Shown: piece after piece, positions 4,502 to 26,580 of the stretch | How the letters are laid out: each line of letters begins with the position of its first letter | How positions within the stretch are numbered: the first letter of the stretch is position 1 | Assembly: GCA_030668565.1 (NCBI GenBank) | Contig: DAOVFD010000001.1 | Span: 1 to 43,541, forward strand | Source: Candidatus Micrarchaeota archaeon | Lineage (GTDB): Archaea > Micrarchaeota > Micrarchaeia > Anstonellales > Bilamarchaeaceae | Direction: 5' to 3' | DNA: 43,541 nucleotides | Position numbers and translations under genes: made by a program | The notes under the pieces: model-generated | What the model saw: the letters and a program-made list of their open reading frames with translations, nothing else | Databases searched by the model: none | Told to the model about the DNA's origin: nothing

Positions 4502-6040
4502 ATGGATAATAGAGAAGAGGCTGTAGAATACATAATCAAAAATATTCTTGACGGGAGGAGGGATATTCATAGGCTGAAGAGGGAGGCATCGGTTAAATTC
4601 TCTGTGGATATAATAAGGAATTCTGAGATACTGAAAAAATCGAAAGGAAGAATTCCGGATGATGCGGCTGAGGTGCTGAGGAAAAAACCGATGAGAACGA
4701 TGTCCGGAGTAACACCGGTAGCCATAATGATTAAACCTTCAGGCTCCTGCAGCCATAACTGTATTTACTGTCCCTTTACCGGAAGGGCTGCAAAAAGCTA
4801 TACAGGAAACGAGCCTGCGGCAATGAGGGCAAGGCAGGCGGATTTCGAACCGGATAAGCAGATTGGTTTGAGATTGAAGCAGTACAGGGAGATGGGGCAT
4901 CCTACGGATAAATGCGAGATAATAATCATGGGGGGAACGTTCCTTGAGATGCCTGACGAATATAAGAGGGATTTCATAAAACGGGTTTATGACAGGTTGA
5001 ATGGAACAACATCTGAAACGCTTGAAGATGCGCTGCTTAAAAACGAGAGTGCGGAGCACAGGGCAATAGGACTTACGATAGAAACAAGGCCTGATGTGTG
5101 CGGGAAAGAACAGATAGACGAGGTGCTTGGATATGGAGCAACAAGGGTTGAACTGGGCGTGCAGCATCCGGATGATACTATTTATGAGAAAGTAAGCCGG
5201 GGACACAAGACTGAAGACGTCATAAGAGCCACCGCGCTTCTGAAAAATTCTGCCTTCAAGGTGCTTTACCATCTTATGCCGGGAATACCAGGTTCGAATC
5301 CGAAAAAGGACATTGAGATGATAAAAAAGGTATTTGATGACAGGAATTTCAGGCCTGACATGCTCAAGATTTATCCCACCCTTGTTATGGAAAATACAGA
5401 GCTTTATGAAATGATGGAAAATGGGGAATATGAACCGTATTCTTCAGAACAGGCTGCTGATGTGATTGCTGAATTCTTCAGATACATACCGAAATACGTA
5501 AGGGTAATGAGAATACAAAGAGACATTCCTGCAAATCTTATATTTTCCGGAGTGAAGAAAAGCAATCTCAGGGAACTTGTGCATAGCAGGATAAGGGAAA
5601 AAGGAATAAAGCCGAAGGAAATCAGATGGAGGGAAATAAAGGGAAGGAAATTTAATCCCATGGAGTTTTCTGTTAAAAGAACTGATTATGATGCGAGCAA
5701 CGGAAAAGAGATATTCCTTTCATATGAAAATGATGGAGGGGCGCTTGCCGGATTCATAAGGTTGAGACTTAATGAGGGGGAGAGCATTGCAGAAGAGATA
5801 AATGGGGACTGTGCGCTTATAAGGGAACTTCATGTTTACGGGACAGAAGCGGAGATAGGAAAAGGCGGCGATGTCCAGCACAAGGGGATAGGAAAGAAAC
5901 TGCTTGAAGAGGCCGAGAACATAGCAAAAGAATCGGGAAGGAAAAGAATGATTATAATAAGCGGGGCAGGAGCAAGGGAATATTACTTCAGGCAGGGATA
6001 TGAAAGGTCTGGGAGATACGTGGCTAGGAAACTTCTATAA
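4502..6040 (+). CDS. elp3: Elp3-type radical SAM / GNAT tRNA-modification enzyme
   Basis: 512 aa. Radical-SAM CxxxCxxC (CSHNCIYCP) in the N-terminal half and GNAT acetyl-CoA motif (VQHKGIGKKLLEEAE) in the C-terminal half. Architecture and length match archaeal Elp3. Confidence 0.9.
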   Translation: MDNREEAVEYIIKNILDGRRDIHRLKREASVKFSVDIIRNSEILKKSKGRIPDDAAEVLRKKPMRTMSGVTPVAIMIKPSGSCSHNCIYCPFTGRAAKSYTGNEPAAMRARQADFEPDKQIGLRLKQYREMGHPTDKCEIIIMGGTFLEMPDEYKRDFIKRVYDRLNGTTSETLEDALLKNESAEHRAIGLTIETRPDVCGKEQIDEVLGYGATRVELGVQHPDDTIYEKVSRGHKTEDVIRATALLKNSAFKVLYHLMPGIPGSNPKKDIEMIKKVFDDRNFRPDMLKIYPTLVMENTELYEMMENGEYEPYSSEQAADVIAEFFRYIPKYVRVMRIQRDIPANLIFSGVKKSNLRELVHSRIREKGIKPKEIRWREIKGRKFNPMEFSVKRTDYDASNGKEIFLSYENDGGALAGFIRLRLNEGESIAEEINGDCALIRELHVYGTEAEIGKGGDVQHKGIGKKLLEEAENIAKESGRKRMIIISGAGAREYYFRQGYERSGRYVARKLL

Positions 6041-6860
6041 TGAACTTTTCCTCATCATTCGTCCCTTTTAGAAGCTCGTCCTGCTCTTTCAGAAGGTCAA
6101 GATATTTTCTCTGTAGGTCTGCGAATTCCTTTTCCTCATCTTCTGTCAGTTCTTTTATCTGCCTTTGGGCATTCTTCCACTGTAATGGGGGGGAAATCTT
6201 TTCTATATTTGAAAGGTTTGTGCTGAGTTTTTCAGCAACATCCTGCGCAACCCATACCTTCCTGTTCGATATTACAAAGAGCTTTTCATGCTCTTCGCCC
6301 CTTCCTGCAAGCACCTGTGTTCCGTCTTCCGAAACAGAGCAGGATATGCCTAGTCTGTTGAAAAGTATTACTATAACCCTTATTGTTTCACTGTCGCATC
6401 CTTCAACAGGAACAGACTCCTGAACCTTACCGTTTTCAAGAATTTCAGCGAACCTGTCCCTTGTTTCCATATCCTTTACACTTGACAGTATTATCAGCAG
6501 TTTTGCAATGCTTTCCTTGTTCTCAAGATTTTCCTTAAGGTACTGGCTGCGTTCCCTCAATATATCAAATGTCTCGCCATATCTGGATTTGAGCGCCTTT
6601 GCCTGCTCCTCAATCGAGAAATTGGATAATTTGCTCTGTAGGTCCGAGATTTTTGCGGAATTAAGCATACAGAATCTTATTTCCGCCTTTTTCAGTTTAT
6701 AAAGAAGTTCGTCGCGGGATGCCTTTGTTTTAATCATGCCCTGGGAGATTTCATCGAGATTTTGGCCTTCCAGCTCCAGATATGCTTTTTTTAGTTCTAA
6801 CTCTACCGACCTTTTTTCCAGTTCCACTAACGCTGCCACGTCCTTTATTCCTATCTGCAT
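6024..6860 (-). CDS. Coiled-coil protein, unknown function (last gene of the 12-gene block)
   Basis: 278-aa ORF with heptad-like charged sequence at both ends. The ATG at 6860 follows a weak SD-like AAGGCGA and overlaps the upstream gene by 110 nt. Alternative ATG at 6737 has no SD. No family recognised. Confidence 0.5.
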   Translation of the reverse strand: MQIGIKDVAALVELEKRSVELELKKAYLELEGQNLDEISQGMIKTKASRDELLYKLKKAEIRFCMLNSAKISDLQSKLSNFSIEEQAKALKSRYGETFDILRERSQYLKENLENKESIAKLLIILSSVKDMETRDRFAEILENGKVQESVPVEGCDSETIRVIVILFNRLGISCSVSEDGTQVLAGRGEEHEKLFVISNRKVWVAQDVAEKLSTNLSNIEKISPPLQWKNAQRQIKELTEDEEKEFADLQRKYLDLLKEQDELLKGTNDEEKFIIEVS

Positions 6861-8523
6861 ATGATCGCCTTTTTGGGAGAATGTAGAGTAAAACGAAGGA
6901 AAAGAATAAAAAGATTAACACGAGCAACTCGAATGGAATTTCCTCCTGGACAGTTTCATCCTTAACAACTGTTTTCATCTGCATTTTCATTTCATCCGTG
7001 GCATCGTCAAGATTTTTGGAATATATGAAAAGACGGTAAGCCGTCGATATGCTGGGGGAATTTTCATTCATGAAGAAAAAGCCCTGGCTGTGGTATATCC
7101 GTCCCCAGACAGAAGTTCTTTCTTCTTCCGAAAGCTGTTTTGTTGTTTCCTCAAGCTCATCAGAAGTGGTAAGAAGAAGGTCAAGGTCAACCTCATCCAT
7201 GGATATCACGTAAACGGCATCGTATATGGCCGCACCGTAGTATCCGTTATCATAGGATTTCTTTGCAATCGCCAGACGGGAGGCGGTCTCAGGAGTATGC
7301 TGGGTGGATTCAGCCTCTGCTATCTTCAGCTCAGCAAGCCCCTTCCATGTGCTCTCATTCAGTTCAGCACCCCCAAAATCAGATGCGATATCTCCAAACA
7401 TGCCTGAAACGCGGCACCAGGCATCGGCATACATCAGCTCATGATACGCTGCATACCTCTCCTCCAGAAGAATATTCACTGCAATATCTGTAGAATCGAT
7501 TTTATCGAGTGCCCACATTCTTCTCAGGTCAGAAGCCACTGCCCACTCAAAGTTTTCATCAGTGATAACCGGTCTTTCTTTCGAATCAAGACATGACACT
7601 ATTTCGTCTTTCTTTTCGTCAAGATTAACATAGTCTTCAAGAACGGCATTTATCGTTGATATCTCCACATAATTCAGGAATGCATCATTCGCAGCAGTAA
7701 AATAATAGCCCCGTCCGATTACCTCAAGCTGTTCTGAAATTGAATCAGAGAAATAATCCTTTATCCATTCTTCCGAAGAGGGCATCCTGTCCAGTGTCCA
7801 GTTCTCAATCTCAATCATCTTTATTGCAGTATTACGGAGCGGAAGAGTACCCGGATAGTTAATGGGCGTTACGTTTTCAGAAAGCCTTGTTTCATATATT
7901 GTATAATTCCTTTCCGACACGGTAATATTGTAAAGCATGAAATCGATTACCTCATCAACCGTTTTTACCTCTATAATTGTTATGCCGTAACTTCTCTCCA
8001 GCCTGTCAAGCGTCAGTGATTCATATATCGTATTATATGGTGTGATGAAATATTCCGCACCGTTCTCCACTGCTGCATTTGTTTTTTCATACAGCCCTCC
8101 GACAGGACCGATGGTGCCATAGCTGTCAACCGAGCCAGTAATCAGGGTATCATTTCTCATGGAAAGATTTTCGAAAAGGGCATAGGACATAACGGATATC
8201 GCAGCACCTGCACTGGGGCCGTCCAGGTATTCACCGTATGGCAGGGATCCGAAATCAACAAGCACGTCACAATTTGAATATTCGGAATCCGACTTATCCC
8301 GTGAATATTCAAGAGCCCTTTTTATCGACTGCTGGGTGCTTATTCCCGCATAGGGGAGAAGCCGGACATATTCGCTTCCGGAACCGGGAACAAGCTTGAT
8401 TGTAACGGTTACTGTGTTTCCGCCATCCCCGACTACTGCCACAAGGTCATGGCTTATCTCTCCTGAGCATGCAGATACAAGATAAATCAGCATCAATGCA
8501 GAAAAGACGAGTTTGAGTTTCAT
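6751..8523 (-). CDS. Exported Lon-type (S16) protease-domain protein without ATPase module, C-terminal membrane anchor
   Basis: Signal peptide with lipobox (MKLKLVFSALMLIYLVSAC). Lon catalytic Ser motif LDGPSAGAAIS and Lys motif PVGGLYEKTNAA lie within the first ~170 aa. Then ~350 aa unknown, a C-terminal TM (LLVLIFLFFSFVLLYIL) and a basic tail. Confidence 0.75.
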   Translation of the reverse strand: MKLKLVFSALMLIYLVSACSGEISHDLVAVVGDGGNTVTVTIKLVPGSGSEYVRLLPYAGISTQQSIKRALEYSRDKSDSEYSNCDVLVDFGSLPYGEYLDGPSAGAAISVMSYALFENLSMRNDTLITGSVDSYGTIGPVGGLYEKTNAAVENGAEYFITPYNTIYESLTLDRLERSYGITIIEVKTVDEVIDFMLYNITVSERNYTIYETRLSENVTPINYPGTLPLRNTAIKMIEIENWTLDRMPSSEEWIKDYFSDSISEQLEVIGRGYYFTAANDAFLNYVEISTINAVLEDYVNLDEKKDEIVSCLDSKERPVITDENFEWAVASDLRRMWALDKIDSTDIAVNILLEERYAAYHELMYADAWCRVSGMFGDIASDFGGAELNESTWKGLAELKIAEAESTQHTPETASRLAIAKKSYDNGYYGAAIYDAVYVISMDEVDLDLLLTTSDELEETTKQLSEEERTSVWGRIYHSQGFFFMNENSPSISTAYRLFIYSKNLDDATDEMKMQMKTVVKDETVQEEIPFELLVLIFLFFSFVLLYILPKRRSYADRNKGRGSVSGTGKKVGRVRTKKSISGAGRPKSR

Positions 8524-9116
8524 CTGGTCATCCTCTTTACCGTAAGAACCCCCTTTTCAGTCCTGAAGAATTCATAGTCTACAGATAAATATAGTTTCTC
8601 GAGCTGGTCGCCCGCTTCCTTGATATAATCAACAACGCTTCCCTTGGGGATATCTTCTGAGAGATATGCTATGGAATAATCATAATTCGCAGCCTGTCCT
8701 GCAACCTCCCTTTGCTCGAGGAGGATTCTTCTTATCCCTCTCCCTTCATACATCAGGAGAACAGCCGGGTCCTCCATGTAAATTGCATTGTGTTCGCCAC
8801 CAACAATTGCCCTTTTCTCAGGGTCGTAACTTGCCGGCCATCCCAGACCCACACCTATGAGCATTCTGTTTACATAGCACCCGAAACTGAGCCCGTATCC
8901 GATTATCTTCTTTACCTCCACTTCAGTTACATCGAAGGCACATTTTCTCATTATTTTCACTACATCTTCAATGTCTTCTTCATCAAGTTTTTTTACCTCC
9001 ACCTGGTCCTCATCGAGGAGGTTGATGAATTCTTTCTTCTTCTCCTCTTTCTCTTTGGGCTCGGCAAATTTTTTCTCTTCTTTCGTATCCACTTTCTTGG
9101 CAAATCCCTGCTCCAT
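8520..9116 (-). CDS. GNAT-like acetyltransferase (tentative)
   Basis: 198 aa. K/E-rich N-terminus, then a fold-sized region with a motif-A-like segment (LLMYEGRGIRRILLEQ). ATGA overlap with the downstream gene. Confidence 0.45.
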   Translation of the reverse strand: MEQGFAKKVDTKEEKKFAEPKEKEEKKKEFINLLDEDQVEVKKLDEEDIEDVVKIMRKCAFDVTEVEVKKIIGYGLSFGCYVNRMLIGVGLGWPASYDPEKRAIVGGEHNAIYMEDPAVLLMYEGRGIRRILLEQREVAGQAANYDYSIAYLSEDIPKGSVVDYIKEAGDQLEKLYLSVDYEFFRTEKGVLTVKRMTR

Positions 9117-9127
9117 TCAAACACCCC

Positions 9128-9448
9128 CTAAACGAACCTTGTTCCGCAGACCGGGCATTTTGTAAGAAATGCCTCGTGCTTGTACCCGCATATAGGACAT
9201 ACATAATAAGTTTTTTTAGCTCTTTCTAATTCCGCCTCAAAGTCGTATCTGCACTTCACGCACTTTTTAATGTCAAGTTCATTGAGTGTTCCGCATCTCG
9301 GGCACTTTCTCCTGAACATCGATTTTATCCTTACGCCGCATTTCGGGCATCTTTCCATGTCAAGGGTTATCGGTTCACCGCAGTTCGGGCATTTCTGGGC
9401 CTCGCCCTTTCCTCTTTTTCCGCTTTTAAAAAGGTCAAGAATGCCCAT
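9128..9448 (-). CDS. Triple zinc-ribbon protein
   Basis: 106 aa with three CxxC...CxxC pairs: CPNCG/CPKCG, CPRCG/CVKC, CPICG/CPVCG. Confidence 0.7.
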   Translation of the reverse strand: MGILDLFKSGKRGKGEAQKCPNCGEPITLDMERCPKCGVRIKSMFRRKCPRCGTLNELDIKKCVKCRYDFEAELERAKKTYYVCPICGYKHEAFLTKCPVCGTRFV

Positions 9449-9452
9449 AACA

Positions 9453-12400
9453 TCAACTCGGAATGAATTCGCAGTTCACATCATAGTTTCTCATTGGAAC
9501 CACTTCAATACCGCAGAAACCCCCGCTTGTGATATCCGACATCCCCATGCCACAGCTTGCCCCCTCATCACCGTTCTTCGGAAAGACAACGGGAACCGTT
9601 CTCATACCAGCAAAAACACGTTTGGTATAGGAATAAAAACTTCCGTCCGCTCCCTGGAGGCAGCAGCGATTGGGTTTTTCCAAACCGCCAACAACATCCA
9701 TATATAGATTGCTGGAAATATCAGAGGAATCAAAACTAACCTCTTCAACCGTTCCATTATGATAATGATATTCACATTTGAATGTTCCAGGTGTTGCATT
9801 GCAAAGCTCACAGGGCTCAACAACCATTCCATCCAGGCATTTTGCATCTCCTTCAGCAAGACCTTCTGGAAGAGTGCACAATGCACCATTTTCACATATC
9901 ATATTACATTTTCCTGTTACTCTGTCATATGTCGAGCATCTTGTACAGTTTACTGATTCAACCGCATCCACTTTCGTGTATATCACTGTGGGGGCAGGAT
10001 TTGCAAATGCATCCATTCCCTTCTGAACACTGCAGAAATATTCACCTTTCTCTCCCACACCTACCCCATCAATAGATACTATACCCTCTCCTCCTACTGG
10101 CGTTTCCCCTCTCACCGGCATCCATATAATTCCCATTATTCCTGAATCACCAAGCTCGGCCTGATTGTCTGCAAGCTCCCTCAAAACCCCCTCAATCTTG
10201 TCGCCCGTCCAGTATGCGCTGTCCGCATTCGTGTAGAAATCAAGAACAAGAGATGGTTTTTGTGCAAGTTGAAGTGTGCTTCTACCCCTTCTTGAAAGAT
10301 GCCCCACTACATCCTCTTCAAGCGTTTCATCCGAGTAATAACCTTTATATTTGACAACCTGGGGGGAATAATCAAATGCAACTATGTCAACATCCTTTCG
10401 CAACCTTGGGTCAGAAAATAATGATATGATTGTTTCGTTGAACCTCTCATCTGTGAATGCTGCCACATCAGTCTTAAGCCGCACTGCAGTCATGCATCTC
10501 CAGCAATGGGTTCGTATTATTGCCGCCCTTTCTGATATTTCATCAAGTCTTTCCTGCGGCACTGGTACCCAGTGAGATGCATGGATAGTATCAACAATTA
10601 CGATAGTTGCTCCCATATCCCCGAATAATCTCTCGAAATCATATTCATTATAAAGCTCATCCGGGTCATCAGGCCTTGTCTTGTCCCAGTTGCTGTCATC
10701 AGTCATATCAATAACAGGGAGAACACCTGATTTCATATAATTGCCAAGTCTTTCCTTCATGAGTGACGCTTCCGGCTGTGTTCGTGCAGCTCCGGTTACT
10801 GAAACAATTGCACCATCGTAATCATCTATATCGGTTATATGCGGAGCTGTGCATTTAAAATCGTGCCAGACCACGAACCCAAGGCCCGACCGCTCCAATT
10901 CATATACGCAATCGCATATATCTTCCTCGCTCCCCTCAATAAATGGCCATTTTGCTTCTTCCATCGGTATATAAGCCCAGTCGCTGGCAGTTATATTTTG
11001 ATATGCAAGCGTTGATATCGTGCATGGCTCGCACCATCCATACTGCTTCAATGATGGGAGACCGGTTGCCCTGTCATACTCACAACTCACTAGAGTATCC
11101 CCCTCAGGTTCAAAGAAAAGAGTTATTGTTTTTGGGTACATAAGAAAATACGTCCTATAAGCATTGGTATCACTATTACCCGAAGGGGAATGAGTAACAA
11201 GTTCACTAGCGCTAGTTCCATCCGCATTTGCTTCTGGTAAATCAAGAAGATTTCTCTCTTTTAGCTTTTGTGCAGCCACAGAACTGATTGTGTACTTATC
11301 ATTGCTCCATCCCTCTCTTTTATAAGCAAGCACCCAGGGCATTGATGATATTATGAGCTCCCCATCATCGATTGTACCACCACCATCTCCCATCTCGGTT
11401 GCAATCTCATCCATCCTTTTTTCGAACATCGGGGCAAATGCGTCCATAAGCTTCTGCCAATTTTCGCCGCTTGGCTCACCAATTACAACAGTTTCCCCGG
11501 GACTTCCCCAACGTAAATTACATCCTTCGGAGAGTAACGTAAACCGGTAATCCCCAAAAGTATACCCAATTACTGTTTTTTCATTCCACTTTATCTCATC
11601 CTCCGGTCTCTTGCTTTTTCCAAAGAAAACAAAACCACCCACGGGAGGATACGCGCTCCCTTCAAGCACGGGACATGGTGCAGTATCAGTTTCGTCGTTT
11701 TCACCATAAAATTCTTTACATTCCTTTTTTGCTTTCTCCACTATATTTATGCTGGCTGGCATTCTTTCAATTTCAAAGCTAGGACCGACCACCTCCTCGG
11801 TTATAACATAATCCAGCACATTGGTGTTGTCCTTACAGCGGCAATATTTCTTTAACGTGGATGGAAGACCCCTTTCGAGTCTTCCGCTAAAATCACACCA
11901 TTCAGTTCTAAGCTCACATCTGTGGTCGCCGCCCATGTCACTGCAGTCGCCAACACAACCAAGCGCCCACTCATCGTGCACGCTGCAATCCGTCAGCTCC
12001 GGCTCGTCTTTCTCCATTATATCCTGCTGGTCATAAGGATCGACTTCTATTTTTATCTTTGCCATGTTCACTATAACAGAAGCGTAGCTAAAGGGGTCGC
12101 TAGCATCTGGATTGATATTTACGGTTGGTGCACATACCTCAATCGTTTTTCCGCCAGGTGTTCCATAGGCATTGCAATCCGCTGCAAGCTCCTCAGTTAC
12201 CTCACCAATTTTTCTTAGATTCGTTGCACGGGAATAAAAGTCAAATGAGCAGCTGCCTGAATAACATTCCAGAGGCCCTGCACATTCAAAGGGTGCCCTC
12301 TCCGCGGTGTCGTAAATCATTTCAAGATGGGACCAGTAAAGCCATTTCCTGTAATATTCTCTGTCAAGCTTTCTGTATGGTTCACTTTCAACGCGTTCTT

Positions 12401-13298
12401 CTGAACAAGTTCCGGAAAACATCGAACCCCGAGGAGTGTGAATAACATCTGCTTCGCCCGAGTAGAGGAGCTTGTAATACTGCGTAAACTTATATTCGTA
12501 CTTCTCTGTATGAACCGGCCCGGCGGGTGTTTCTAGTAATGCATCATGCCCGAACCGGAATGGTGGTTCAGGAGCGAGTGAATCAAGGTCCATGCATTCT
12601 CCGATATCTGATGGGTCATAAGGATGTTTATCGCTGATAAATCCGCCAAGATAGTTCATGTACCTGTCTACCTTATCACCGCCTAGACTGGGCCCCATGT
12701 TTACGTTGCAGTACTTATCGGAAATTGGAAAGTAATAACGATAGTTATCATACTCATCAAAAGAGCCGCCTACACCAATGCGGAAAACATTTATCGAAGA
12801 TTTTGTATTTTTCATTATGGATGCAAGCTTGAGGTCCATTGGAAAGAACCTGCACTGTGCCTTATAGAATCCAAGCGTCTCCTCTTCCTCTTCAGATTCT
12901 GGTGGAACCTCAACCTTGGCACTGACAGTATCACCACTGCTCGTATCAATAACACCAGGCGCAACCTTTGGCTTAAACATAAAGTCTCCACAGACCATTG
13001 CAGTGCAATCCGGATCAATACAATCATTCAATTCATTATCAGTGCATATCGGAACAAGATGGTATTTTCCGCCTATTGAAACATTGCAGTATCCCTTTGT
13101 TACATTGCACCACTCCGTATCCTTCTTGTACTCTTCCATAAGCCTGCTCGTAGTCATGTTGAGCAGAACACATTTTCCGTCTTCTAATGTCGCATTCGCC
13201 TTCTGACAGCAGCCGAGCTTTACTATCGGCTCTACGCAACCAAAGGCAAGGAGCAAAGCCATCGAAACAAACAATACAAGATATTTTTTCATTTTCAT
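9453..13298 (-). CDS. Giant (1281 aa) cysteine-rich exported protein, unknown function
   Basis: N-terminal signal peptide ending in a lipobox-like LLAFGC. No further TM. Many Cys in close pairs and many N-x-S/T sequons. Start lies 1 nt after the stop of the upstream paralogue gene. Confidence 0.8.
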   Translation of the reverse strand: MKMKKYLVLFVSMALLLAFGCVEPIVKLGCCQKANATLEDGKCVLLNMTTSRLMEEYKKDTEWCNVTKGYCNVSIGGKYHLVPICTDNELNDCIDPDCTAMVCGDFMFKPKVAPGVIDTSSGDTVSAKVEVPPESEEEEETLGFYKAQCRFFPMDLKLASIMKNTKSSINVFRIGVGGSFDEYDNYRYYFPISDKYCNVNMGPSLGGDKVDRYMNYLGGFISDKHPYDPSDIGECMDLDSLAPEPPFRFGHDALLETPAGPVHTEKYEYKFTQYYKLLYSGEADVIHTPRGSMFSGTCSEERVESEPYRKLDREYYRKWLYWSHLEMIYDTAERAPFECAGPLECYSGSCSFDFYSRATNLRKIGEVTEELAADCNAYGTPGGKTIEVCAPTVNINPDASDPFSYASVIVNMAKIKIEVDPYDQQDIMEKDEPELTDCSVHDEWALGCVGDCSDMGGDHRCELRTEWCDFSGRLERGLPSTLKKYCRCKDNTNVLDYVITEEVVGPSFEIERMPASINIVEKAKKECKEFYGENDETDTAPCPVLEGSAYPPVGGFVFFGKSKRPEDEIKWNEKTVIGYTFGDYRFTLLSEGCNLRWGSPGETVVIGEPSGENWQKLMDAFAPMFEKRMDEIATEMGDGGGTIDDGELIISSMPWVLAYKREGWSNDKYTISSVAAQKLKERNLLDLPEANADGTSASELVTHSPSGNSDTNAYRTYFLMYPKTITLFFEPEGDTLVSCEYDRATGLPSLKQYGWCEPCTISTLAYQNITASDWAYIPMEEAKWPFIEGSEEDICDCVYELERSGLGFVVWHDFKCTAPHITDIDDYDGAIVSVTGAARTQPEASLMKERLGNYMKSGVLPVIDMTDDSNWDKTRPDDPDELYNEYDFERLFGDMGATIVIVDTIHASHWVPVPQERLDEISERAAIIRTHCWRCMTAVRLKTDVAAFTDERFNETIISLFSDPRLRKDVDIVAFDYSPQVVKYKGYYSDETLEEDVVGHLSRRGRSTLQLAQKPSLVLDFYTNADSAYWTGDKIEGVLRELADNQAELGDSGIMGIIWMPVRGETPVGGEGIVSIDGVGVGEKGEYFCSVQKGMDAFANPAPTVIYTKVDAVESVNCTRCSTYDRVTGKCNMICENGALCTLPEGLAEGDAKCLDGMVVEPCELCNATPGTFKCEYHYHNGTVEEVSFDSSDISSNLYMDVVGGLEKPNRCCLQGADGSFYSYTKRVFAGMRTVPVVFPKNGDEGASCGMGMSDITSGGFCGIEVVPMRNYDVNCEFIPS

Positions 13299-13299
13299 A

Positions 13300-14316: not shown

Positions 14317-15371
14317 ACCATTTGCATTATTCTACTTAAATCTACCTCCTCACCATAGAGTCTTGCAAGATACACTACTGATGCTACCGCAGCAAGCATT
14401 GCTAGTGAAGGCAGGAAAAACCCCACCACAAATGCCATTCCTCCGAAAGCTATTGCCTCCGCAGGTTTTTCGCCATTTGGGAAATAATAGACGTCTTTTA
14501 CAAAATCCGCACCATAGGTAGCTGAGCCAAGCGTTGCGCCCACACCCGCAACATGCTCCGGATAGGTATCCTCATCAAGGAAATTAGATAGCGAGGGGTC
14601 CGGAAGATAGTCAGGCTTGTTGAATATCGAATCCCCCATAAGGTTGAAGGTTGCAAGGAAGAGGGGATAGATAATCGAAAAGGAAATCGCTATTGATATA
14701 AGGACTGAACCAAATGAACGCATATACGGCATTGAACGCATAAAGATGCCTATCGGGAAAAGGAAAAACGCGAATCCTTTATAGATATAGAGCAGAATCA
14801 TAAGATAGTTCAGCGACATAAGATAGGACATGAGGGTTGAGTTAAATATCGTATTAAGGGCCGCATTCAGTGCAGCATATCCACCAAATGGCTGAGTCTG
14901 TGTTCCTGAAAAACCAAACCAGCATCCCCACCCTGTATGGTCCATACTATACGCACATTTAAATGCTCCCATACAACCCAGAACAGTATAACCCTCAAGG
15001 TGATAACGCACTACAGTAAGCGCATTATGACTATATCTCGCTGCACTGACAAGATAATCCTCTGCAGCATCAAACATTGAGGATGGACCGGAATAGGTTA
15101 TCTCAAAAATATCTGCGATATTATGCATATCAATCGAACAGAAAAAGCCAAATAAGGAGCTGAGCAGGAGCAATGAAACAAAGGAAATGAAAAGCTGAAC
15201 CACTTCTGTTTTTGCCCATACCGTTACCTTCGGATTTCTTATTGCCTGGCCTACCATAAATGAAACGGCAATTATAATTGCGGTAATTATACCGGCATAA
15301 GCTGCAAGTGGGAATATTGTGGATGTGAGGAAATCCATAAATTCCGGGGAGCATACTGTTGCCACTACCAT
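14313..15371 (-). CDS. Polytopic membrane protein, paralogue P5
   Basis: 352 aa. Signatures TVWAKTEVVQL, FPIGIFMRSMPYMRSFGSVLIS, C-terminal YGEEVDLSRIMQMV. TAATG overlap with P4. Confidence 0.8.
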   Translation of the reverse strand: MVVATVCSPEFMDFLTSTIFPLAAYAGIITAIIIAVSFMVGQAIRNPKVTVWAKTEVVQLFISFVSLLLLSSLFGFFCSIDMHNIADIFEITYSGPSSMFDAAEDYLVSAARYSHNALTVVRYHLEGYTVLGCMGAFKCAYSMDHTGWGCWFGFSGTQTQPFGGYAALNAALNTIFNSTLMSYLMSLNYLMILLYIYKGFAFFLFPIGIFMRSMPYMRSFGSVLISIAISFSIIYPLFLATFNLMGDSIFNKPDYLPDPSLSNFLDEDTYPEHVAGVGATLGSATYGADFVKDVYYFPNGEKPAEAIAFGGMAFVVGFFLPSLAMLAAVASVVYLARLYGEEVDLSRIMQMV

Positions 15372-16348
15372 TATACAAACCTCGTAATTGCGCTCACATC
15401 AACCTCAGCACCAAAGAGGCCTGAGAGCGCTTTCAGTCCCCCTGCAAAGAGGAGAAGCGCAACCGCCGGGCCTAGAGTCGCCTTCAGCAGGATAATATAA
15501 AGGTATTTCTTAAGGTTCGCTCTTAAATTTCCATAGGCATCCACCGCCTTATCGCTATTGCTTCCAAAAGCTGTTTCACAAGGGTCGCACTTCTTAACAT
15601 CTATTCCTCCTGGATTAGAATACTCATCTCTATAACCAGCTCCTTCGTCTGACATAAATTGCTCATTTAGCATATCAACAAAAATAATTCCTGCAGGCAT
15701 GAGTATATAAGCGGAAATCCCGAATGCTATGAGAAAGCCGCCTGCTCCCCTGCTGAACCTGAATGTCCTTAAGATGATGCCAAGCGGGAGAAACAGCACA
15801 AGGGCAAAATCTTTTGTCAGTGTTATGATTTTCTTGGCTGACGCCACCTCGGCAATCGCATAACCTACTATGGAGCCTGACATTGAAAAGGGAGTACTAA
15901 GCATAGGGAATCCCCCACATGCGCTTACAGAATATCCCCCACCAGTAAGTTGGCAACTACACCCCTTCGACGCTTCTATAGCAATGCTGTTATCTGTACC
16001 GGATATTGTGTTAAGACACTTAGAAAGATTCTGATAGGTATCATCAAGACTTACTATTGCCGCATCCTGTATTGTTGGCTGACCCTGGGTAAGTGCACTG
16101 CTTTGGGAAATTGCATCTAGTATGCCATCTGTTCCAAGCAGTATAACCATAAGCAGTGCAAGAACTATAAGCTGGTAGAATTCATCCTTTGAAAGCGCCT
16201 TCAGTGTTTCGTTTTCAATTCCCATACCTACTGCGAAAACCGCTGCCAGCAGTGTCATAGATATTATTATTGCCATTGCTGCCACTGACTGCCATGATGC
16301 AAACGCAAGCGGAATCAACAACAGCAATACAAGCAATATCTTTTTCAT
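15371..16348 (-). CDS. Polytopic membrane protein, paralogue P4
   Basis: 325 aa. Signal peptide MKKILLVLLLLIPLAFA. Signatures KALSKDEFYQL, LPLGIILRTFRFSRGAGGFLIA, C-terminal FGAEVDVSAITRFV. Confidence 0.8.
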   Translation of the reverse strand: MKKILLVLLLLIPLAFASWQSVAAMAIIISMTLLAAVFAVGMGIENETLKALSKDEFYQLIVLALLMVILLGTDGILDAISQSSALTQGQPTIQDAAIVSLDDTYQNLSKCLNTISGTDNSIAIEASKGCSCQLTGGGYSVSACGGFPMLSTPFSMSGSIVGYAIAEVASAKKIITLTKDFALVLFLPLGIILRTFRFSRGAGGFLIAFGISAYILMPAGIIFVDMLNEQFMSDEGAGYRDEYSNPGGIDVKKCDPCETAFGSNSDKAVDAYGNLRANLKKYLYIILLKATLGPAVALLLFAGGLKALSGLFGAEVDVSAITRFV

Positions 16349-16356
16349 TCCAACAC

Positions 16357-18432
16357 CTAAAACAATTTCGAAATTCCGGGTATCTCTATATCTCCTCCTA
16401 TCATTCCTGAAAGCGTTTTTATGAACACAAGCGTTACAACTATATTGAAGAGCGGCAGCAAATAGGCAGGTATCATCATTTTTGAAACATTCTTTATCTC
16501 GGACATTCCAACAAGCCCTTCCTCATTTATCTTCATATAATCCCCCGGACTGCTCATCGGCACTTTATTCTTCGGTTTGCACAGGTCACCGCATTCCATA
16601 TTAATCGGGGGGTCATACTGATAAGATTCAGGGGTAAGAATACACTCTTCACATGCGCTTCTTGGCGGATAGAGCTTGTAATCAGCAGGACACTCATCCT
16701 TGGAACAACCTTCACTTGTTAATTCCTCTGGAAGGTGAGCTCCAAGAATTCTTTTTTCAGCAGGGCAAGCAGTGCAATTTGGGGGTTGTGGATCAAGCGC
16801 TTTAATATCATCAATATCGAGCTTGCAGGTATCCGGACATTTGTCACACGCACCAAGAAGCCCGCCGGTTTCACTATCAAAACAACCAGATGCAAAATTG
16901 CTTTCGTCACCGCCCTTTATCCTGCAATAGGAAGGACAGCCCACACAAAGATTATCACAAGAACCTGTTTCAGGCATAACCCAGACGCATGATTCCTCTG
17001 CATTAAGGCTTGCAGGACAATCACTTGCAAACTTATTGCATCGTTCGCTTCCCTCCACACGCTCATCAACAGAGGGCCTCCACTGGAATGGCGGGTCATC
17101 GTACGCTTCAGACTTCTTTGCAACCCTGCAGTCAAGCCTTGACTCAAGACATTTTCCAAAGCCGCTACAATCGGATTTCAATGGAGGGATTATCTTGCAT
17201 TCCTTAGGACACTCTTCGTATTCAGGTGCTTCTGTTCCGCCAGGAACATAACGTATGACCTTGCAACGTTTGTCGAGTTTTGCGCATGCTGTCTGGTTAG
17301 CAGGGTCAGCACATGCAGGAACCGAATTCGGGTATGGAAGTTCCCTACACGCACGTGGACAACCTACTCCATCACTTGGGTTTTCATCGTAATCGCATGA
17401 AAATACTTCTATCCCGCTTGCATTTATCGCGCTTTCCAGCGTTCCGTTCACCAGCTTCTTGGCTTTATTCTTTTCTGCTTCATCTGTCCCAAATACATCG
17501 TATACATCGTTCGGGTCTTCCAGCAGGACACCCTCCCCTCCAACAGTATAATACGCAAGCGGCGAGGCAATTATACATTCCGGCGGGCAAAGAAACTGGT
17601 CACCGACTATGGCATTATCCCCTTCAATCATCATATCAAGAGTTGCCCAGTCAAAAAAATACATTGCAGGGAAGAAGAACATTACGCCTGCAGCTATCGC
17701 TATCAGTAAACCTCCGGTTTTTCTTGTTATGAAGAATGACCGGCCCACTATTCCCAGTGCAAGAATAACAGGACCCACCTTAAAAGCAAATTGCTCTATG
17801 AAGAATTTTTGCGAATAGAGGGAAGAAAGTACTCCTGTATAATATCCAAATACTATGCTGTAGCGGTCGACATCAAGCACTTTATATGCTGCAAGCGGAA
17901 AGGTCAAACTTATCTGACCGACCTTTATGGATGTCCCGTAAATTCCTACACTACGCCCAGCCCACGCGCTTGCCTTCATGTTATTTTTTACAGTATCTTT
18001 AATACTTATCTCGGCAGCCGAAATATAATCATCCAGATATGCTATTGATACGGTCTTAAGACAATTATCACCTATATCACAATGAAGGCCTCCAGGCGCG
18101 GCGTCGTTGATGATGAGCATGCTGAGTGTATCAATGAACCCTATAGCCACAAAAAGAAAGACTATGAGAACAGCATTTGAGAATACCTGCCTCAACTCGG
18201 TTCCTGCCCATGCCTGCAGCTCGGGCATTTCAAGACCCTTGCCTATTGCGTATGCAATTGCAACCAGTATCGTTGATATCATCAGTGCAGCTACTGCAAG
18301 CAACTGCCAGCTCTGCACAAGTTCGAGTGAAACCTTGCCAGTCTGTTCTTCGATAAGTTCTGTTGTATTCTGCGAGAATGAAAGTGCTGCAAGAGCAATG
18401 AAAACAAAGATTAACAATGGAATCTTTTTCAT
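16357..18432 (-). CDS. Polytopic membrane protein, paralogue P3, with ~340-aa cysteine-rich insertion
   Basis: 691 aa. Signal peptide MKKIPLLIFVFIALAALSFS. Signatures QAWAGTELRQV, PVILALGIVGRSFFITRKTGGLLIA, C-terminal IGGDIEIPGISKLF. There are 32 Cys between residues 282 and 618. Confidence 0.8.
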   Translation of the reverse strand: MKKIPLLIFVFIALAALSFSQNTTELIEEQTGKVSLELVQSWQLLAVAALMISTILVAIAYAIGKGLEMPELQAWAGTELRQVFSNAVLIVFLFVAIGFIDTLSMLIINDAAPGGLHCDIGDNCLKTVSIAYLDDYISAAEISIKDTVKNNMKASAWAGRSVGIYGTSIKVGQISLTFPLAAYKVLDVDRYSIVFGYYTGVLSSLYSQKFFIEQFAFKVGPVILALGIVGRSFFITRKTGGLLIAIAAGVMFFFPAMYFFDWATLDMMIEGDNAIVGDQFLCPPECIIASPLAYYTVGGEGVLLEDPNDVYDVFGTDEAEKNKAKKLVNGTLESAINASGIEVFSCDYDENPSDGVGCPRACRELPYPNSVPACADPANQTACAKLDKRCKVIRYVPGGTEAPEYEECPKECKIIPPLKSDCSGFGKCLESRLDCRVAKKSEAYDDPPFQWRPSVDERVEGSERCNKFASDCPASLNAEESCVWVMPETGSCDNLCVGCPSYCRIKGGDESNFASGCFDSETGGLLGACDKCPDTCKLDIDDIKALDPQPPNCTACPAEKRILGAHLPEELTSEGCSKDECPADYKLYPPRSACEECILTPESYQYDPPINMECGDLCKPKNKVPMSSPGDYMKINEEGLVGMSEIKNVSKMMIPAYLLPLFNIVVTLVFIKTLSGMIGGDIEIPGISKLF

Positions 18433-18434
18433 AT

Positions 18435-19400
18435 CTATCCAATCACCCTTAATGCCTTATTTGCTCCGGCAAGGAATGTTATAAGCAATGCTATCGTCAG
18501 GTTTGGGAGGAAGAATGCCTGGGGCATAAGCCTTGCCACATTCCAGAAACTACCCTGGTTTTCCCAGCCACCAAACCACCTGTCTGTTATTATTCCCCTG
18601 TAGTGATAACATTCATCATCGCCGATTACATCATACATCGCGAGATTGAACGTGTACATAAAAGGCACTATGATGTAAAGTCCGACAGAGAGAGCGATTA
18701 GCATATTTCCCATTCCCCTTGTAGGAATAAAAATCCTTAATATGAAAGCTGTGGGTAGTAGCCAGTATATCACATTATCGCTTATGAATCCCAAGAATAA
18801 CTCTTGTATATTCAGGCTCAGGAGTGCAGGAAAGACAAATGTGTTCAGGGTTGTGTCGTACTGATTTGCTACGACACGTCTCCATGCTCCACCTGCTGAT
18901 GTAAAGGAGTTGAGCAGTGGTATTGAAATCGTAGCCGACCATGTGGAATGCATGAGCTTGTCGATATAGTTATCCATATAATTTTCCGACATCCTCTGCG
19001 CATCACTCTTTGCTATATTAAGATAGCAGAGTGAAACCCCAGTCATAGTAGCACTTTCGCTATAGCATCCTGAAGGGGTTTCAAGCTTTTCAAGCGTTGT
19101 TTTGTAGAACATATCGATTGCAGTGCATGAAAAAAGCAGAAGAGTACTAAAACCAATCAGAAGCGCAATTGAGAAACAGAGGTGCCATGCTTCGTCCTTT
19201 GCAAATACTATAAATCTTGTATTTCCGGTGGATGAACCAATTACATACGCTATTGCAATAATAAGGGTGGTTAATATCAAGACAGCCCATATTAGTATCC
19301 CCTGCTCGGAGAGAATTACATCAGTGGCGTTATCGATACAGTCAATAGAATGGGCAAGCGGAAGCAACAGCAACAACGCAATCAAAAATGAAAATCTCAT
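18435..19400 (-). CDS. Polytopic membrane protein, paralogue P2
   Basis: ORF track starts at 19430. The ATG at 19400 gives a clean signal peptide (MRFSFLIALLLLLPLAHS) and an ATGA overlap with the P1 stop. Signatures VFAKDEAWHL and LPTAFILRIFIPTRGMGNMLIA; C-terminal tail divergent. Confidence 0.75.
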   Translation of the reverse strand: MRFSFLIALLLLLPLAHSIDCIDNATDVILSEQGILIWAVLILTTLIIAIAYVIGSSTGNTRFIVFAKDEAWHLCFSIALLIGFSTLLLFSCTAIDMFYKTTLEKLETPSGCYSESATMTGVSLCYLNIAKSDAQRMSENYMDNYIDKLMHSTWSATISIPLLNSFTSAGGAWRRVVANQYDTTLNTFVFPALLSLNIQELFLGFISDNVIYWLLPTAFILRIFIPTRGMGNMLIALSVGLYIIVPFMYTFNLAMYDVIGDDECYHYRGIITDRWFGGWENQGSFWNVARLMPQAFFLPNLTIALLITFLAGANKALRVIG

Positions 19401-20638
19401 ATCAACCTCTCCACACCCGCCATATACCATTCCCCGCCAAGGGCTGTTGAAATGGATTTCGCCCCGGATATGGTTATAATCGCTATCACTACAAAGTCGA
19501 TATAGCCGACAAGTATAACATTGTTGACATTTTGCAGGAACGGCATGAGGATATCAAAAACCCTCTCCGGCCATAACCCATATCCGAAACCGCCCGTAGC
19601 ACCAATGTTCATTTCAGCCCATTGGAGCCATGTGAGAGTAAGCACTGTCTGGACTATTTTTATAACCTGCATTATTACTGGATAAATCACTTCTGATGTG
19701 AGCTCGAAGCACGCTGGAAAAGCAGCAGCACCATAACCAGTAAGCAAAAGCCAGCCACAGCAAACAAAACCAAATCCATACTCGGTTATAGCGAGGAGAA
19801 ATCGGTTTGGTAAAAACGAACAAAACATAGAACCAAAATCCATTGACCACGAATGCGGATCAAGCCGAAACATATCCGAATCCGATATCGTAACATTAGG
19901 ATAATCAATAAGCTGCTTATTGACCTCACCAACTATTATAACGGAAAACGGAAGAAGAACTATCGCAGCAAGGGAAACGGCAATAAGTGTGTTCCCGATA
20001 CGCCGCGTAAATGGAATAAGGCGTATTGCAAATGCAAGTGGAAGAATAATAGTCGGGACAGTAGCATGAAAAAATTTAATCAAAAGGCTAAGACCTTCAT
20101 AAAGAAATATTACATTTGTCAATCCCTGGGTCGCACTCCCAAGTGCCATGAGAAAGATTGACGCACCAGAAAGGGGTGAAGCAGAGTAGGTTATGTAGAA
20201 ATACCAAGCGGGAATTCCAACGTACGGAGAATACGTTGCACCCACCCTTATCTTTGTTGCAACACGAATTATGTTTTCATAGGCAGTATCGTAACCGCTT
20301 GTTTTACTCTCAAGCATATTGTCTATTACACCTATCGACGCATCGATATAGGTCGCTTCCTCTTCCCCCATCAGTACTGCGCTCATCTGCTCTGCTGATA
20401 TGAAAAGCGAAAAAATTATTATTACAAGAAGAACCCCTGCCACGAATTCCCTAAATTCGCTTTTTGTCCATGCCATTAATTGGGGACTCGAAAGCGCATT
20501 GGAGAACATGAACATTATTGCGAGGAATATTACTACTATTATGGCAACCATCGGCACGGCGAACATTAGATTTATTGGCGCTGCAAACGCAATGCCAAAA
20601 AGAAGCAGAAAAATGAAGGTAACGTGCATTAAGCGCAT
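19397..20638 (-). CDS. Polytopic membrane protein, paralogue P1
   Basis: 413 aa. Signatures MAWTKSEFREF, LPLAFAIRLIPFTRRIGNTLIA, C-terminal LGGEWYMAGVERLI. Multiple hydrophobic helices. Confidence 0.8.
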   Translation of the reverse strand: MRLMHVTFIFLLLFGIAFAAPINLMFAVPMVAIIVVIFLAIMFMFSNALSSPQLMAWTKSEFREFVAGVLLVIIIFSLFISAEQMSAVLMGEEEATYIDASIGVIDNMLESKTSGYDTAYENIIRVATKIRVGATYSPYVGIPAWYFYITYSASPLSGASIFLMALGSATQGLTNVIFLYEGLSLLIKFFHATVPTIILPLAFAIRLIPFTRRIGNTLIAVSLAAIVLLPFSVIIVGEVNKQLIDYPNVTISDSDMFRLDPHSWSMDFGSMFCSFLPNRFLLAITEYGFGFVCCGWLLLTGYGAAAFPACFELTSEVIYPVIMQVIKIVQTVLTLTWLQWAEMNIGATGGFGYGLWPERVFDILMPFLQNVNNVILVGYIDFVVIAIITISGAKSISTALGGEWYMAGVERLI

Positions 20639-20659
20639 AGCCTAATTAGGAGTAATACC

Positions 20660-20667
20660 TTTATAAA
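20660..20667 (-). promoter_or_regulatory. TATA-like box TTTATAAA upstream of P1
   Basis: Palindromic TTTATAAA in the only sizeable spacer (48 nt) of the block. It lies 22-29 nt upstream of the P1 ATG (20638), consistent with a leaderless internal promoter. Confidence 0.4.
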
Positions 20668-20686
20668 TTTACCAAAAATCAGAGAA

Positions 20687-21526
20687 TCACTTGAAAGTAA
20701 AGGTTAAACCCCCCATTACGGTGGTTTCCTCAATAGCAGTTATATTATAGTTATAAACCGAAAGATTGGCTGAAAGGTTTTGGGTTATATCTACTTCCAG
20801 ATCTCCATGCAATCCAAATGCAACCTCTTCTTTATAGACAATGAGCTGTGGACCTGCTTCAACACTGAAAATTTCACCTTCTGCAGCAACATTAAGAGAA
20901 AATTCACCATAGCCTGCCCCTTCAGTATCAAGGCCCCCTCCTGCAGCCGGTCCGATAGACACTATTTCGCTGACACCAAAATATACTGACACGTCACCGG
21001 CAACTGCTGTTCCTGTAAGCGGGTCGCGGTAAATTTCTACATAAACCGTTTCGTCTATTGCCAATACAGCACTTCCTGCAAAATCTGTCTTTTCAGGAGT
21101 TATTACCAAAGTCGCTTCCAATTCAGCACTCACTCTTTCCCCTTCTATCGTTTCGCTGACAGATATGGTAGCTGCAGGCGCTTTTTCGGCTACTCCTCCT
21201 GCGCCTTTGATTTGTGTTGCTGCTTCTATTTCCGGCTTTTCCTCTATCTCTTCTACTTCGGGTTTTTCTTCCGGAGCCTTAAGTGTTTTCTCGATTTCTT
21301 CTGCCAGTTCAGGGTCCTTTTCTTTTACAGCATCTACAAGAGCTTGGGAAAATGGAATCTCATTGCTCATTCTTTCTGCCACGTTATCAGTCAGCTCGGA
21401 TAAGTCAGTAAATCTTTCCTCGATTATTACTTTTACTTCCTGGGGAAGTGCCTGTATTTCTGCCGCAGCTTTTTCCTTGTGCGTTTCTGGCATGCATAAA
21501 GTTAGTAAGGAAGAAGTTTTAAACAT
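20687..21526 (-). CDS. Acidic protein with beta-rich C-terminal half, unknown function (first gene of the block)
   Basis: 279-aa ORF with no signal peptide or TM. E/K-rich N-terminal half; C-terminal half has alternating hydrophobic/G-rich strands ending GGLTFTFK. Alternative start at Met12 (21493). Confidence 0.6.
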   Translation of the reverse strand: MFKTSSLLTLCMPETHKEKAAAEIQALPQEVKVIIEERFTDLSELTDNVAERMSNEIPFSQALVDAVKEKDPELAEEIEKTLKAPEEKPEVEEIEEKPEIEAATQIKGAGGVAEKAPAATISVSETIEGERVSAELEATLVITPEKTDFAGSAVLAIDETVYVEIYRDPLTGTAVAGDVSVYFGVSEIVSIGPAAGGGLDTEGAGYGEFSLNVAAEGEIFSVEAGPQLIVYKEEVAFGLHGDLEVDITQNLSANLSVYNYNITAIEETTVMGGLTFTFK

Positions 21527-22012: not shown

Positions 22013-22043
22013 TCTTTAAAATTCTCAGCGTCCTAAAGCCCTC

Positions 22044-26544: not shown

Positions 26545-26580
26545 TTAGGCTAACAAATTATCTAGCCGTTGTTGGCCTAA
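26545..26580. repeat. 36-nt palindromic element, copy 1 (TTAGGCTAACAAATT-N11-GTTGGCCTAA)
   Basis: The first 15 nt are identical to 27560-27574. The last 10 nt match 27586-27595 at 9/10 at the same spacing. Arms are inverted repeats of each other. It overlaps the fic stop codon. Confidence 0.7.

Follow-up and report, generated by a model that had tools for sequence, protein, structure and literature searches.

A Micrarchaeota-specific cell-envelope module of six membrane paralogues, a giant cysteine-rich protein and a divergently encoded membrane protein

DPANN archaea are abundant, mostly uncultivated and thought to live via physical contact with other cells. To our knowledge, almost none of the surface machinery for this contact has been identified at the molecular level. 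A 43,541-nucleotide (nt) stretch of DNA from a Candidatus Micrarchaeota archaeon (contig DAOVFD010000001.1; the whole stretch is referred to hereafter as the window) raises a question in this setting: do the twelve open reading frames (ORFs) packed on its minus strand between positions 6024 and 21526 form one unit, and what might such a unit do at the cell surface? An earlier note on this DNA had described them as a single co-transcribed, envelope-themed block encoding, in order of transcription, an acidic protein, six membrane paralogues (P1 to P6), a giant exported protein, a Zn-ribbon protein, a 198-residue protein (g198), a Lon-like protease and a coiled-coil-like protein (CC). Our analysis indicates that the region contains a Micrarchaeota-specific cell-envelope module, and also that the neighbouring genes are not all part of it. 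The core of the module consists of eight genes: P1 to P6, the giant, and a divergently encoded partner, orf1053, that had not been included in the earlier list. The core families are without annotated relatives, and the cluster itself is undescribed, in that no prior account of it was found in the searchable literature on Micrarchaeota and DPANN archaea.

Comparative anatomy of the locus

We retrieved 48 loci from different Micrarchaeota genomes via an alignment of giant-protein homologues, and then mapped the window proteins onto the ORFs of these loci. One of them (L001) is the public contig identical to the window, which carries an independent gene call; another (L002) represents the closest relative. 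The named homologues all belong to Candidatus Micrarchaeota, including members of the Bilamarchaeaceae and Anstonellales. In approximately 36 loci the genes occur in the order P1-P2-P3-P4-P5-P6-giant, with giants that share only 24-55% identity with that of the window. The junctions between the genes are tight throughout, with modes at -4, -1 and 0 to +4 nt. Because about 36 independent loci agree in gene order and in the tightness of their junctions, the layout reflects more than chance. The full string from P1 to CC is present in 26 loci. Locus by locus, the best match of each paralogue is its positional counterpart, which indicates that the six-fold duplication predates the radiation of these lineages, and every complete locus, including the most distant, contains exactly six P paralogues in a fixed order. 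The orf1053 gene lies divergent to P1, 35-100 nt away, in about 35 loci, among them second copies that consist of the core only.

These eight genes, orf1053, P1 to P6 and the giant, are inherited, duplicated and retained together. Three loci (L008, L020 and L040) contain a second or tandem copy that keeps the eight-gene core and is followed by unrelated genes. Genes after the giant are also unrelated in the deepest-branching loci. Of these, L042 and L047 retain orf1053 along with P1 to P6 and the giant; the sequence fetched for L049 and L050, which stops short of their upstream end, includes the P genes and the giant. Comparison across relatives, which the earlier note had named as a check on gene association, thus reveals an association that is non-random. 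Within it, the Zn-ribbon and g198 genes are frequent riders behind the core, and the Lon and CC genes are a separate unit that is fused to the operon only in the lineage of the window.

With respect to copy number, two cores per genome were seen in JBNLBN (L008 and L019) and in JAKEGJ (L020 and L024), and the two copies of L040 are arranged in tandem. The extra copies are not accompanied by Zn-ribbon, g198, Lon or CC genes, and they reside in unrelated neighbourhoods. In distant lineages, an orphan protein of 1991-2469 residues comes after the giant (L049:13530-19505 and L050:14124-21533).

The possibility that the block might be an accessory island, absent from close relatives, did not survive this comparison: the block lies amid housekeeping genes and is conserved lineage-wide, in 48 of the 48 recovered loci. 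Outside the block, the window resembles an ordinary chromosome that encodes ELP3, PRPP synthetase, ScpB, SHMT, Spt5, FtsZ, SAICAR synthetase and SerRS. A mobile or viral origin of the block was also considered and rejected in view of these housekeeping neighbours, a composition that is even across the window, and the lack of any relative among IMG/VR viral contigs.

All twelve minus-strand ORFs listed in the earlier note are present (Table 1), and each of the junctions it had described was confirmed in the sequence. The acidic gene is separated from P1 by a 48-nt spacer that holds the element TTTATAAA. P1 and P2 are joined by an ATGA overlap if P2 starts at ATG 19400, gaps of 2 and 8 nt separate P2 from P3 and P3 from P4, the P4/P5 junction reads TAATG, and P5 is followed after 2 nt by P6 when the latter is taken from ATG 14310. 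These two start codons are the most likely ones, since both agree with the independent gene call on L001. Further downstream, the gaps measure 1 nt between P6 and the giant, 4 nt between the giant and the Zn-ribbon gene, and 11 nt between the Zn-ribbon gene and g198, which itself shares an ATGA overlap with the Lon gene.

Where does transcription of this series begin? A TATA box (TTTAAAT or TTTATAAA) beginning 28-29 nt before the P1 ATG was found in about 27 of 37 loci, preceded by a purine-rich stretch (gaaaacg) that resembles a B recognition element. A TATA box at -28/-29 is the archaeal arrangement expected of a leaderless or near-leaderless mRNA. Since the TTTATAAA element within the acidic/P1 spacer corresponds to this conserved P1 TATA box, P1 is the first gene of the operon, and the acidic gene precedes the operon promoter. 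Relatives exhibit a second TATA box at -64 to -80 relative to P1, towards the orf1053 end of the divergent spacer; the window has a TATA-like counterpart ahead of orf1053 (Table 1).

A single promoter, a common direction, and overlaps or gaps of under ~12 nt across species were found for the genes from P1 to g198, which very likely form one translationally coupled transcript. This combination was not found for the acidic gene, nor generally for Lon and CC. The single twelve-gene transcript proposed earlier thus very likely holds for P1 to g198, on the strength of the promoter and the coupled junctions, but not for the acidic gene or, in most relatives, for Lon and CC, which there have a promoter of their own. 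Specifically, the Lon gene of most relatives is preceded at about -30 by a TTTATTAA element, back-to-back with a PP-loop ATPase gene that intervenes between g198 and Lon in the opposite orientation. The window and L002 have lost both the element and the PP-loop gene, and it is this loss that brought about the ATGA overlap of g198 and Lon. The acidic gene can no longer be counted as a conserved member of the block: among the loci it is present only in L001, whose sequence is that of the window. Both it and a TPR gene situated between orf1053 and P1 are absent from the orf1053/P1 spacer in every relative and are therefore lineage-specific insertions.

Table 1. Coordinates of genes and promoter elements at the locus (positions are those of the window; aa, amino acids; TM, transmembrane segment).
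Feature	Position	Strand	Description
orf1053	22044-25205	+	1053-aa single-pass membrane protein; divergent core partner
orf1053 TATA-like box (TTTAAAA)	22015-22021	+	29 nt upstream of the orf1053 ATG
TPR protein	21545-22012	+	Pfam TPR/ANAPC3; between orf1053 and P1
Acidic protein	20687-21526	-	279 aa, no signal peptide
Operon promoter TATA box (TTTATAAA)	20660-20667	-	starts 29 nt upstream of the P1 ATG
P1	19397-20638	-	paralogue 1, 410-413 aa (P family, 5 TM)
P2	18435-19400	-	paralogue 2, 321 aa, ATGA overlap with P1
P3	16357-18432	-	paralogue 3, 691 aa, ~380-aa insert between TM4 and TM5
P4	15371-16348	-	paralogue 4, 325 aa, structure modelled
P5	14313-15371	-	paralogue 5, 352 aa
P6	13300-14310	-	paralogue 6, 336 aa from ATG 14310
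Giant	9453-13298	-	1281 aa, exported, 52 Cys, signal peptide and lipobox-like A/F-G-C, several beta-sandwich domains
Zn-ribbon protein	9128-9448	-	cytoplasmic, 106 aa, 12 Cys, several zinc ribbons (Pfam DZR/Zn_ribbon)
g198	8520-9116	-	cytoplasmic, 198 aa
Lon-like protease	6751-8523	-	exported, membrane-anchored, S16 domain at residues ~30-200
CC	6024-6860	-	cytoplasmic, 278 aa, coiled-coil-like

Predicted architecture of the core proteins

The envelope theme of the block is borne out by its proteins: P1 to P6 are predicted to have signal peptides and a five-TM topology, the giant has an invariant lipobox, and the Lon domain is part of an exported protein that is anchored by a TM segment at its C-terminus. 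That P1 to P6 are membrane paralogues, as the earlier note had held, was confirmed by a collinear alignment with 21-28% identity over ~230 residues. Six positions are invariant in all of them (E56, R194, R200, G203, P218 and G313 in P4 numbering), and their C-terminal tails have the pattern G-(G/A)-E-x-D in common. The family is large, comprising 3,189 cluster representatives at E <= 1e-3 in an exhaustive profile search; it has no Pfam match, no NCBIfam match above cutoff, and no sequence match in the PDB. An AlphaFold (AF2) model of P4 (predicted local distance difference test, pLDDT, 83; predicted template modelling score, pTM, 0.75) consists of very long helices together with a small beta-hairpin, and a Foldseek search of this model against PDB and BFVD returned nothing significant. 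Hydrophobicity and the positive-inside rule, combined with the invariance of the ectodomain cysteines and with where the large insert of P3 is located, suggest that each paralogue would have a signal peptide or N-terminal segment followed by five TM segments, an N-out/C-in orientation, an ectodomain that is helical and contains conserved cysteines, and a conserved cytoplasmic face carrying the E...R...R..G residues.

Invariant cysteine pairs and a mild excess of glycosylation sequons mark the extracellular parts. P3 contains 34 cysteines, most of them within the insert, and all 34 are conserved in >=90% of 32 orthologues; they could form structural disulfides or extracellular metal sites. The insert (residues ~280-620) shows repeated C-P-x-x-C and C-x-x-C motifs (CPRAC, CPKEC, CPSYC, CPDTC, CTAC and CEEC). 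A multihaem cytochrome was considered for these cysteine-rich proteins and rejected, as no CxxCH motif is present in translated P3 or the giant.

In Candidatus Anstonella, the P4 and P5 orthologues each possess three N-terminal CARDB (cell-adhesion-related) domains. These fusions support an extracellular N-terminus of the P proteins as well as a role in surface display. The role in a surface structure or in cell-cell interaction that the earlier note had proposed thus receives some support, although it is one that we still infer. Separately, P3, P4 and P5 orthologues of distant lineages reach 870-1140 residues (for example L049:3118-8546, from Candidatus Anstonella stagnisolia LFW-35).

The giant has 84-90 homologues of similar length, all of them from Micrarchaeota, among which more than 40 cysteines are invariant. 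Every orthologue with an intact N-terminus (~27 of the 30 ORFs listed) has the sequence [L/A][A/F]GC immediately after its hydrophobic core, with G18 and C19 invariant (numbering of the 1279-residue database entry P0001, in which C19 corresponds to Cys21 of the window protein), and the giant is accordingly predicted to be a lipobox protein that is anchored to lipid. An AF2 model (pLDDT 84.8, pTM 0.86) contains, at approximately residues 841-1111, a (beta/alpha)8 barrel for which Foldseek identified glycoside hydrolase (GH) families GH5, GH10, GH2, GH164 and GH53 as matches (E 1e-5 to 1e-3, probability 1.0, target TM-score up to 0.45). In this respect the giant resembles clan GH-A (GH5 mannanases, GH10 xylanases, GH2, GH164), with which it shares a barrel of ~270-300 residues flanked by beta-sandwiches. 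It differs from them in that its barrel is embedded in a 1281-residue lipoprotein with 52 cysteines and lacks the catalytic Glu pair: neither the Asn-Glu of strand beta4 nor the Glu of beta7 is conserved among 72 homologues, with strands assigned from the secondary structure of the model rather than by superposition. Strand beta4 ends instead in F-D-Y, and no match to any GH family was found at the sequence level.

Although the fold fits, an active GH-A glycosidase was therefore rejected for want of the catalytic pair. Other residues at the rim of the barrel are conserved (D864, N870, W871, D971, Y977, Y1059 and K1084). Loss of the catalytic pair combined with conservation of the remaining rim leads us to read the barrel as degenerate and probably glycan-binding; from the model, it more likely binds glycans in the manner of a lectin than hydrolyses them. 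The giant was also considered as an S-layer (surface-layer) protein. The published Micrarchaeota S-layer protein is PF05123-like and contains almost no sulfur amino acids (10.1101/2021.04.28.441871), unlike the cysteine-rich giant, and no S-layer domain (PF05123-like) was found in the giant, in orf1053 or in a further large protein of the window, orf1083; this assignment was rejected.

The eighth core protein, orf1053, is an orphan type-I membrane protein with a signal peptide, a cysteine-containing ectodomain of ~200 residues, one TM segment (residues ~203-223) and an extended cytoplasmic region rich in Lys and Gly. Conservation is highest in the TM and juxtamembrane segment (residues ~201-250, YYTGRNPFAAFSLGTPRAGIGGRHIKYTPGG) and far lower in the Lys/Gly-rich region. 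No Pfam or PDB relative of orf1053 was found.

Possible functions of the module

Together, these features would fit a hetero-oligomeric surface platform, a reading to which we give about an even chance of being correct. P1 to P6 would assemble in fixed stoichiometry, probably one copy of each, into a single membrane platform that displays disulfide-rich ectodomains (the P3 insert and, in some lineages, CARDB domains) between the membrane and the S-layer. The platform would hold the lipid-anchored giant under the S-layer and would be connected to the cytoplasm by orf1053. Its most likely role would be surface attachment or recognition through binding to glycosylated envelopes, either the surface of a partner cell or the S-layer of the cell itself. 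There is a conceptual likeness here to the FliP/FliQ/FliR export gate, in which ancient and indispensable paralogues encoded by consecutive, translationally coupled genes imply one hetero-oligomer; the likeness goes no further, as there is no relation in sequence or fold and no associated export ATPase.

Several points weigh against such a platform. The assembly of P1 to P6 with the giant is a prediction from the genes, and so is the proposed stoichiometry, which is deduced from translational coupling and strict six-fold retention. The putative binding of glycans is read from a fold match of moderate strength in the barrel (E about 1e-5, target TM-score 0.3-0.45). With strong conservation in a housekeeping setting, an essential part in envelope biogenesis is no less plausible than host recognition, a function that tends to evolve rapidly, and several Micrarchaeota orders, including the Anstonellales, have been argued to be less host-dependent (PMC12892359). 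The adjacency of the Zn-ribbon, g198, Lon and CC genes could reflect general collinearity, given that ELP3 and the PP-loop ATPase are equally syntenic. Finally, a genome scan with two exact peptide patterns and protein searches with a word prefilter gave no sign of the module in the cultured strains Candidatus Micrarchaeum harzensis A_DKE, Candidatus Mancarchaeum acidiphilum Mia14 and Microcaldus variisymbioticus ARM-1, a result that may reflect either search sensitivity or true absence.

The main rival, which we regard as rather unlikely, holds that the module is a housekeeping machine for biogenesis and anchoring of the cell's own glycosylated S-layer and its pseudo-periplasm, with the Lon-like protein as a protease for maturation or quality control and with no part in cell contact. 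Lineage-wide conservation next to ELP3, PRPP synthase, ScpB and FtsZ would be expected from such a machine, as would the strong purifying selection apparent in the invariant cysteines of the giant and in g198 (57-70% identity). There is also an analogy in Staphylothermus, where the stalk formed by tetrabrachion carries a bound protease. More broadly, archaeal S-layer and stalk systems (Micr_00292 of Micrarchaeota, Staphylothermus tetrabrachion with the STABLE protease, and SlaA/SlaB of Sulfolobales) share with the module large exported, probably glycosylated, membrane-anchored proteins and a protease alongside, whereas the giant is extremely cysteine-rich and without PF05123 or another S-layer domain, and the anchor here would be a polytopic platform of six paralogues rather than a single stalk protein. 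Micrarchaeota do possess a glycosylated S-layer, the anchoring of which is unknown (10.1101/2021.04.28.441871), but the module has no linked gene for a glycosyltransferase, a flippase or an S-layer protein, the giant is unlike the known Micrarchaeota S-layer protein, and the CARDB domains on P4 and P5 orthologues, like the duplicated cores, look more like diversifying surface functions. 

Quite improbable, in our estimation, is a trans-envelope conduit in which P1 to P6 would form a VirB6/CedA-like pore, with the giant as its cap, through which DNA, proteins or metabolites would be exchanged with a host. Metabolite import is a necessity for DPANN cells, and an unassigned barrel-shaped complex has been seen in the envelope of a Micrarchaeon (PMC11329633). 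The P proteins also resemble the VirB6/CedA/TedA subunits of type IV secretion systems (T4SS) in being polytopic helical proteins of ~300-400 residues with long helices that project from the membrane, and such subunits oligomerise into a stalk or pore. Weak hints of this kind recurred in the searches. P4 weakly matches the NCBIfam family CedA (NF041796; a VirB6-like pore for crenarchaeal DNA import), the sole NCBIfam family matched by more than three P-family members. With four further sequences, this makes 5 matches among the 26 sequences of a P-family alignment (A4) made up mostly of P4 orthologues (best E 2.8e-5, cutoff 330 bits). Foldseek placed the VirB6/TrwI chain 8rt9_F at E 0.18 (TM-score 0.23) and a TrbL-annotated protein at E 0.55, both non-significant. 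Outside this P4-rich alignment, however, none of 95 orthologues of P1, P2, P3, P5 and P6 matched CedA, and the P family gave no match to Pfam TrbL. Comparison by hhalign of two P-family profiles (A4 and A8) with a VirB6 profile (A9) built from R388 TrwI and six divergent plasmid homologues yielded a probability of 0.4% each, and 0.15% against TrwI alone, although very remote homology could escape a profile of only seven sequences. No VirB4/CedB/HerA-type ATPase and no VirB2/CedA1-type pilin was found in the block, elsewhere in the window or among the genes inspected next to related loci. For these reasons the assignment of the P family to VirB6, CedA or TrbL was rejected, and membership in a T4SS or Ced system is unsupported. 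The module further differs from T4SS in having six distinct paralogues instead of a homo-oligomer, no coupling protein nearby, and a chromosomal, housekeeping-linked location rather than one on a mobile element.

Equally doubtful is the idea that there is no complex, and that six independent membrane receptors or transporters became clustered by tandem duplication and operon inertia, with the giant, orf1053 and the rest as unrelated neighbours. The unrelated ELP3 and PP-loop ATPase genes are syntenic over the same range, and tiny intergenic gaps are usual in compact archaeal genomes, but independent paralogues normally vary in copy number, and here there are exactly six, in order, in every complete locus. 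Moreover, the eight-gene set was duplicated as a block whereas flanking genes were not, and the start/stop overlaps are conserved. 

A bolder form of the platform reading, to which we attach only a very slight probability, would see in the eight-gene core an archaeal envelope nanomachine of a new class, in which a membrane ring of pseudo-six-fold symmetry would bear an extracellular cap rich in disulfides and would serve as a cell-cell port on the symbiont side, with the Lon-like protein as an accessory. Proteins of the Lon family typically form hexamers. One candidate for such a port would be the 21-nm barrel-shaped docking complex, as yet unassigned, that cryo-electron tomography revealed underneath the S-layer of the cultured Micrarchaeon ARM-1 (PMC11329633).

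The analysis defines a concrete target, eight co-inherited and unannotated genes for which the start of the operon, the topology and the domain content are specified. Should housekeeping envelope assembly prove to be the true function, a hetero-oligomer of six ancient paralogues combined with a lipoprotein of degenerate glycosidase fold would represent a new architectural principle for archaeal envelopes, and several large orphan families would gain names.

Downstream genes and other neighbours

Behind the giant, a Zn-ribbon gene with tight junctions is present in about 33 loci. The g198 gene that follows is the most conserved of the block, with 64 invariant columns in addition to the high identity given above. 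The earlier note had called its product GNAT-like, and the likeness is weak: orthologues match GNAT profiles (Acetyltransf_1 in 11 of 24, best E 0.0034; Acetyltransf_9 in 5 of 24), with all of these matches below the gathering threshold. A segment resembling GNAT motif A (Q/R-x-x-G-x-G/A), YEGRGIRRILL, is invariant. For the window protein itself no Pfam match was obtained, and no PDB sequence relative was found. The PP-loop ATPase genes of relatives encode an N-terminus that is Asn_synthase/NAD_synthase/QueC-like, for example L025:14726-15436, L029:14894-15574 and L007:14789-15220 (all on the minus strand).

The Lon-like protein comprises a signal peptide, a conserved Cys, an S16 domain, an orphan domain of ~330 residues, a C-terminal TM segment and a basic tail. 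It matches Pfam Lon_C (PF05362) at 40.9 bits against a cutoff of 21.1, and PDB Lon P-domains at E 2e-12 over residues ~29-208 only; this was the sole find in PDB sequence searches that also covered profiles of the P family, the giant, g198 and CC as well as orf1053 and the acidic protein. The motifs of the Ser-Lys dyad, GPS(A/G)G and GG(L/V)xEK, are conserved in 32 of 32 sequences (the window and 31 orthologues), no AAA+ match was detected, and the S16 domain is predicted to be extracytoplasmic. The protein is thus predicted to be an exported, membrane-tethered Ser-Lys protease. It shares the Lon_C domain and the dyad motifs with family S16 (archaeal LonB P-domains and SepM/YlbL-type proteins), from which it differs by the absence of AAA+ or PDZ domains, by its export, its C-terminal TM tether and its orphan domain, and by the overlap of its gene with CC. 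The protease may process surface proteins; its link to the module is weak, and the fusion of Lon and CC to the operon in this lineage is no more than suggestive.

The Lon/CC junction had been left open as either a 110-nt overlap or a 13-nt gap. The N-terminal 41 residues of CC, read from ATG 6860, are conserved in ~29 orthologues (consensus ME.t.rDlarLiELnKKkaElEFk), and the 110-nt out-of-frame overlap is therefore real. Overlaps of 50-110 nt occur in 29 of 29 loci when the longest ORFs are considered, one locus reaching 347 nt. For CC itself, no functionally characterised relatives were found. At its 3' end, CC overlaps ELP3 (4502-6040, plus strand) convergently by 17 nt (6024-6040), and ELP3 is convergent behind CC in 24 related loci. 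In L007, a 1189-residue surface protein of the right-handed beta-helix/NosD type (17722-21291, plus strand) is inserted between CC and ELP3.

Glu is abundant in the N-terminal half of the acidic protein, whereas the C-terminal half is beta-rich, with much Gly and Val, and ends in ...GGLTFTFK; the protein gave no family or PDB match. At the edge of the window, orf1083 (355-3606, plus strand) encodes a 1083-residue orphan with two hydrophobic segments near its N-terminus and a Lys-rich C-terminus that ends in KKKKKPKGPPPPPTFG. It was considered as a paralogue of orf1053 and rejected, as the two have no similarity, and it is syntenic only in the closest relative (L002). Lastly, a Fic/DOC-domain protein (Pfam E 2e-21) is encoded between ScpB and SHMT (26558-27526, minus strand).

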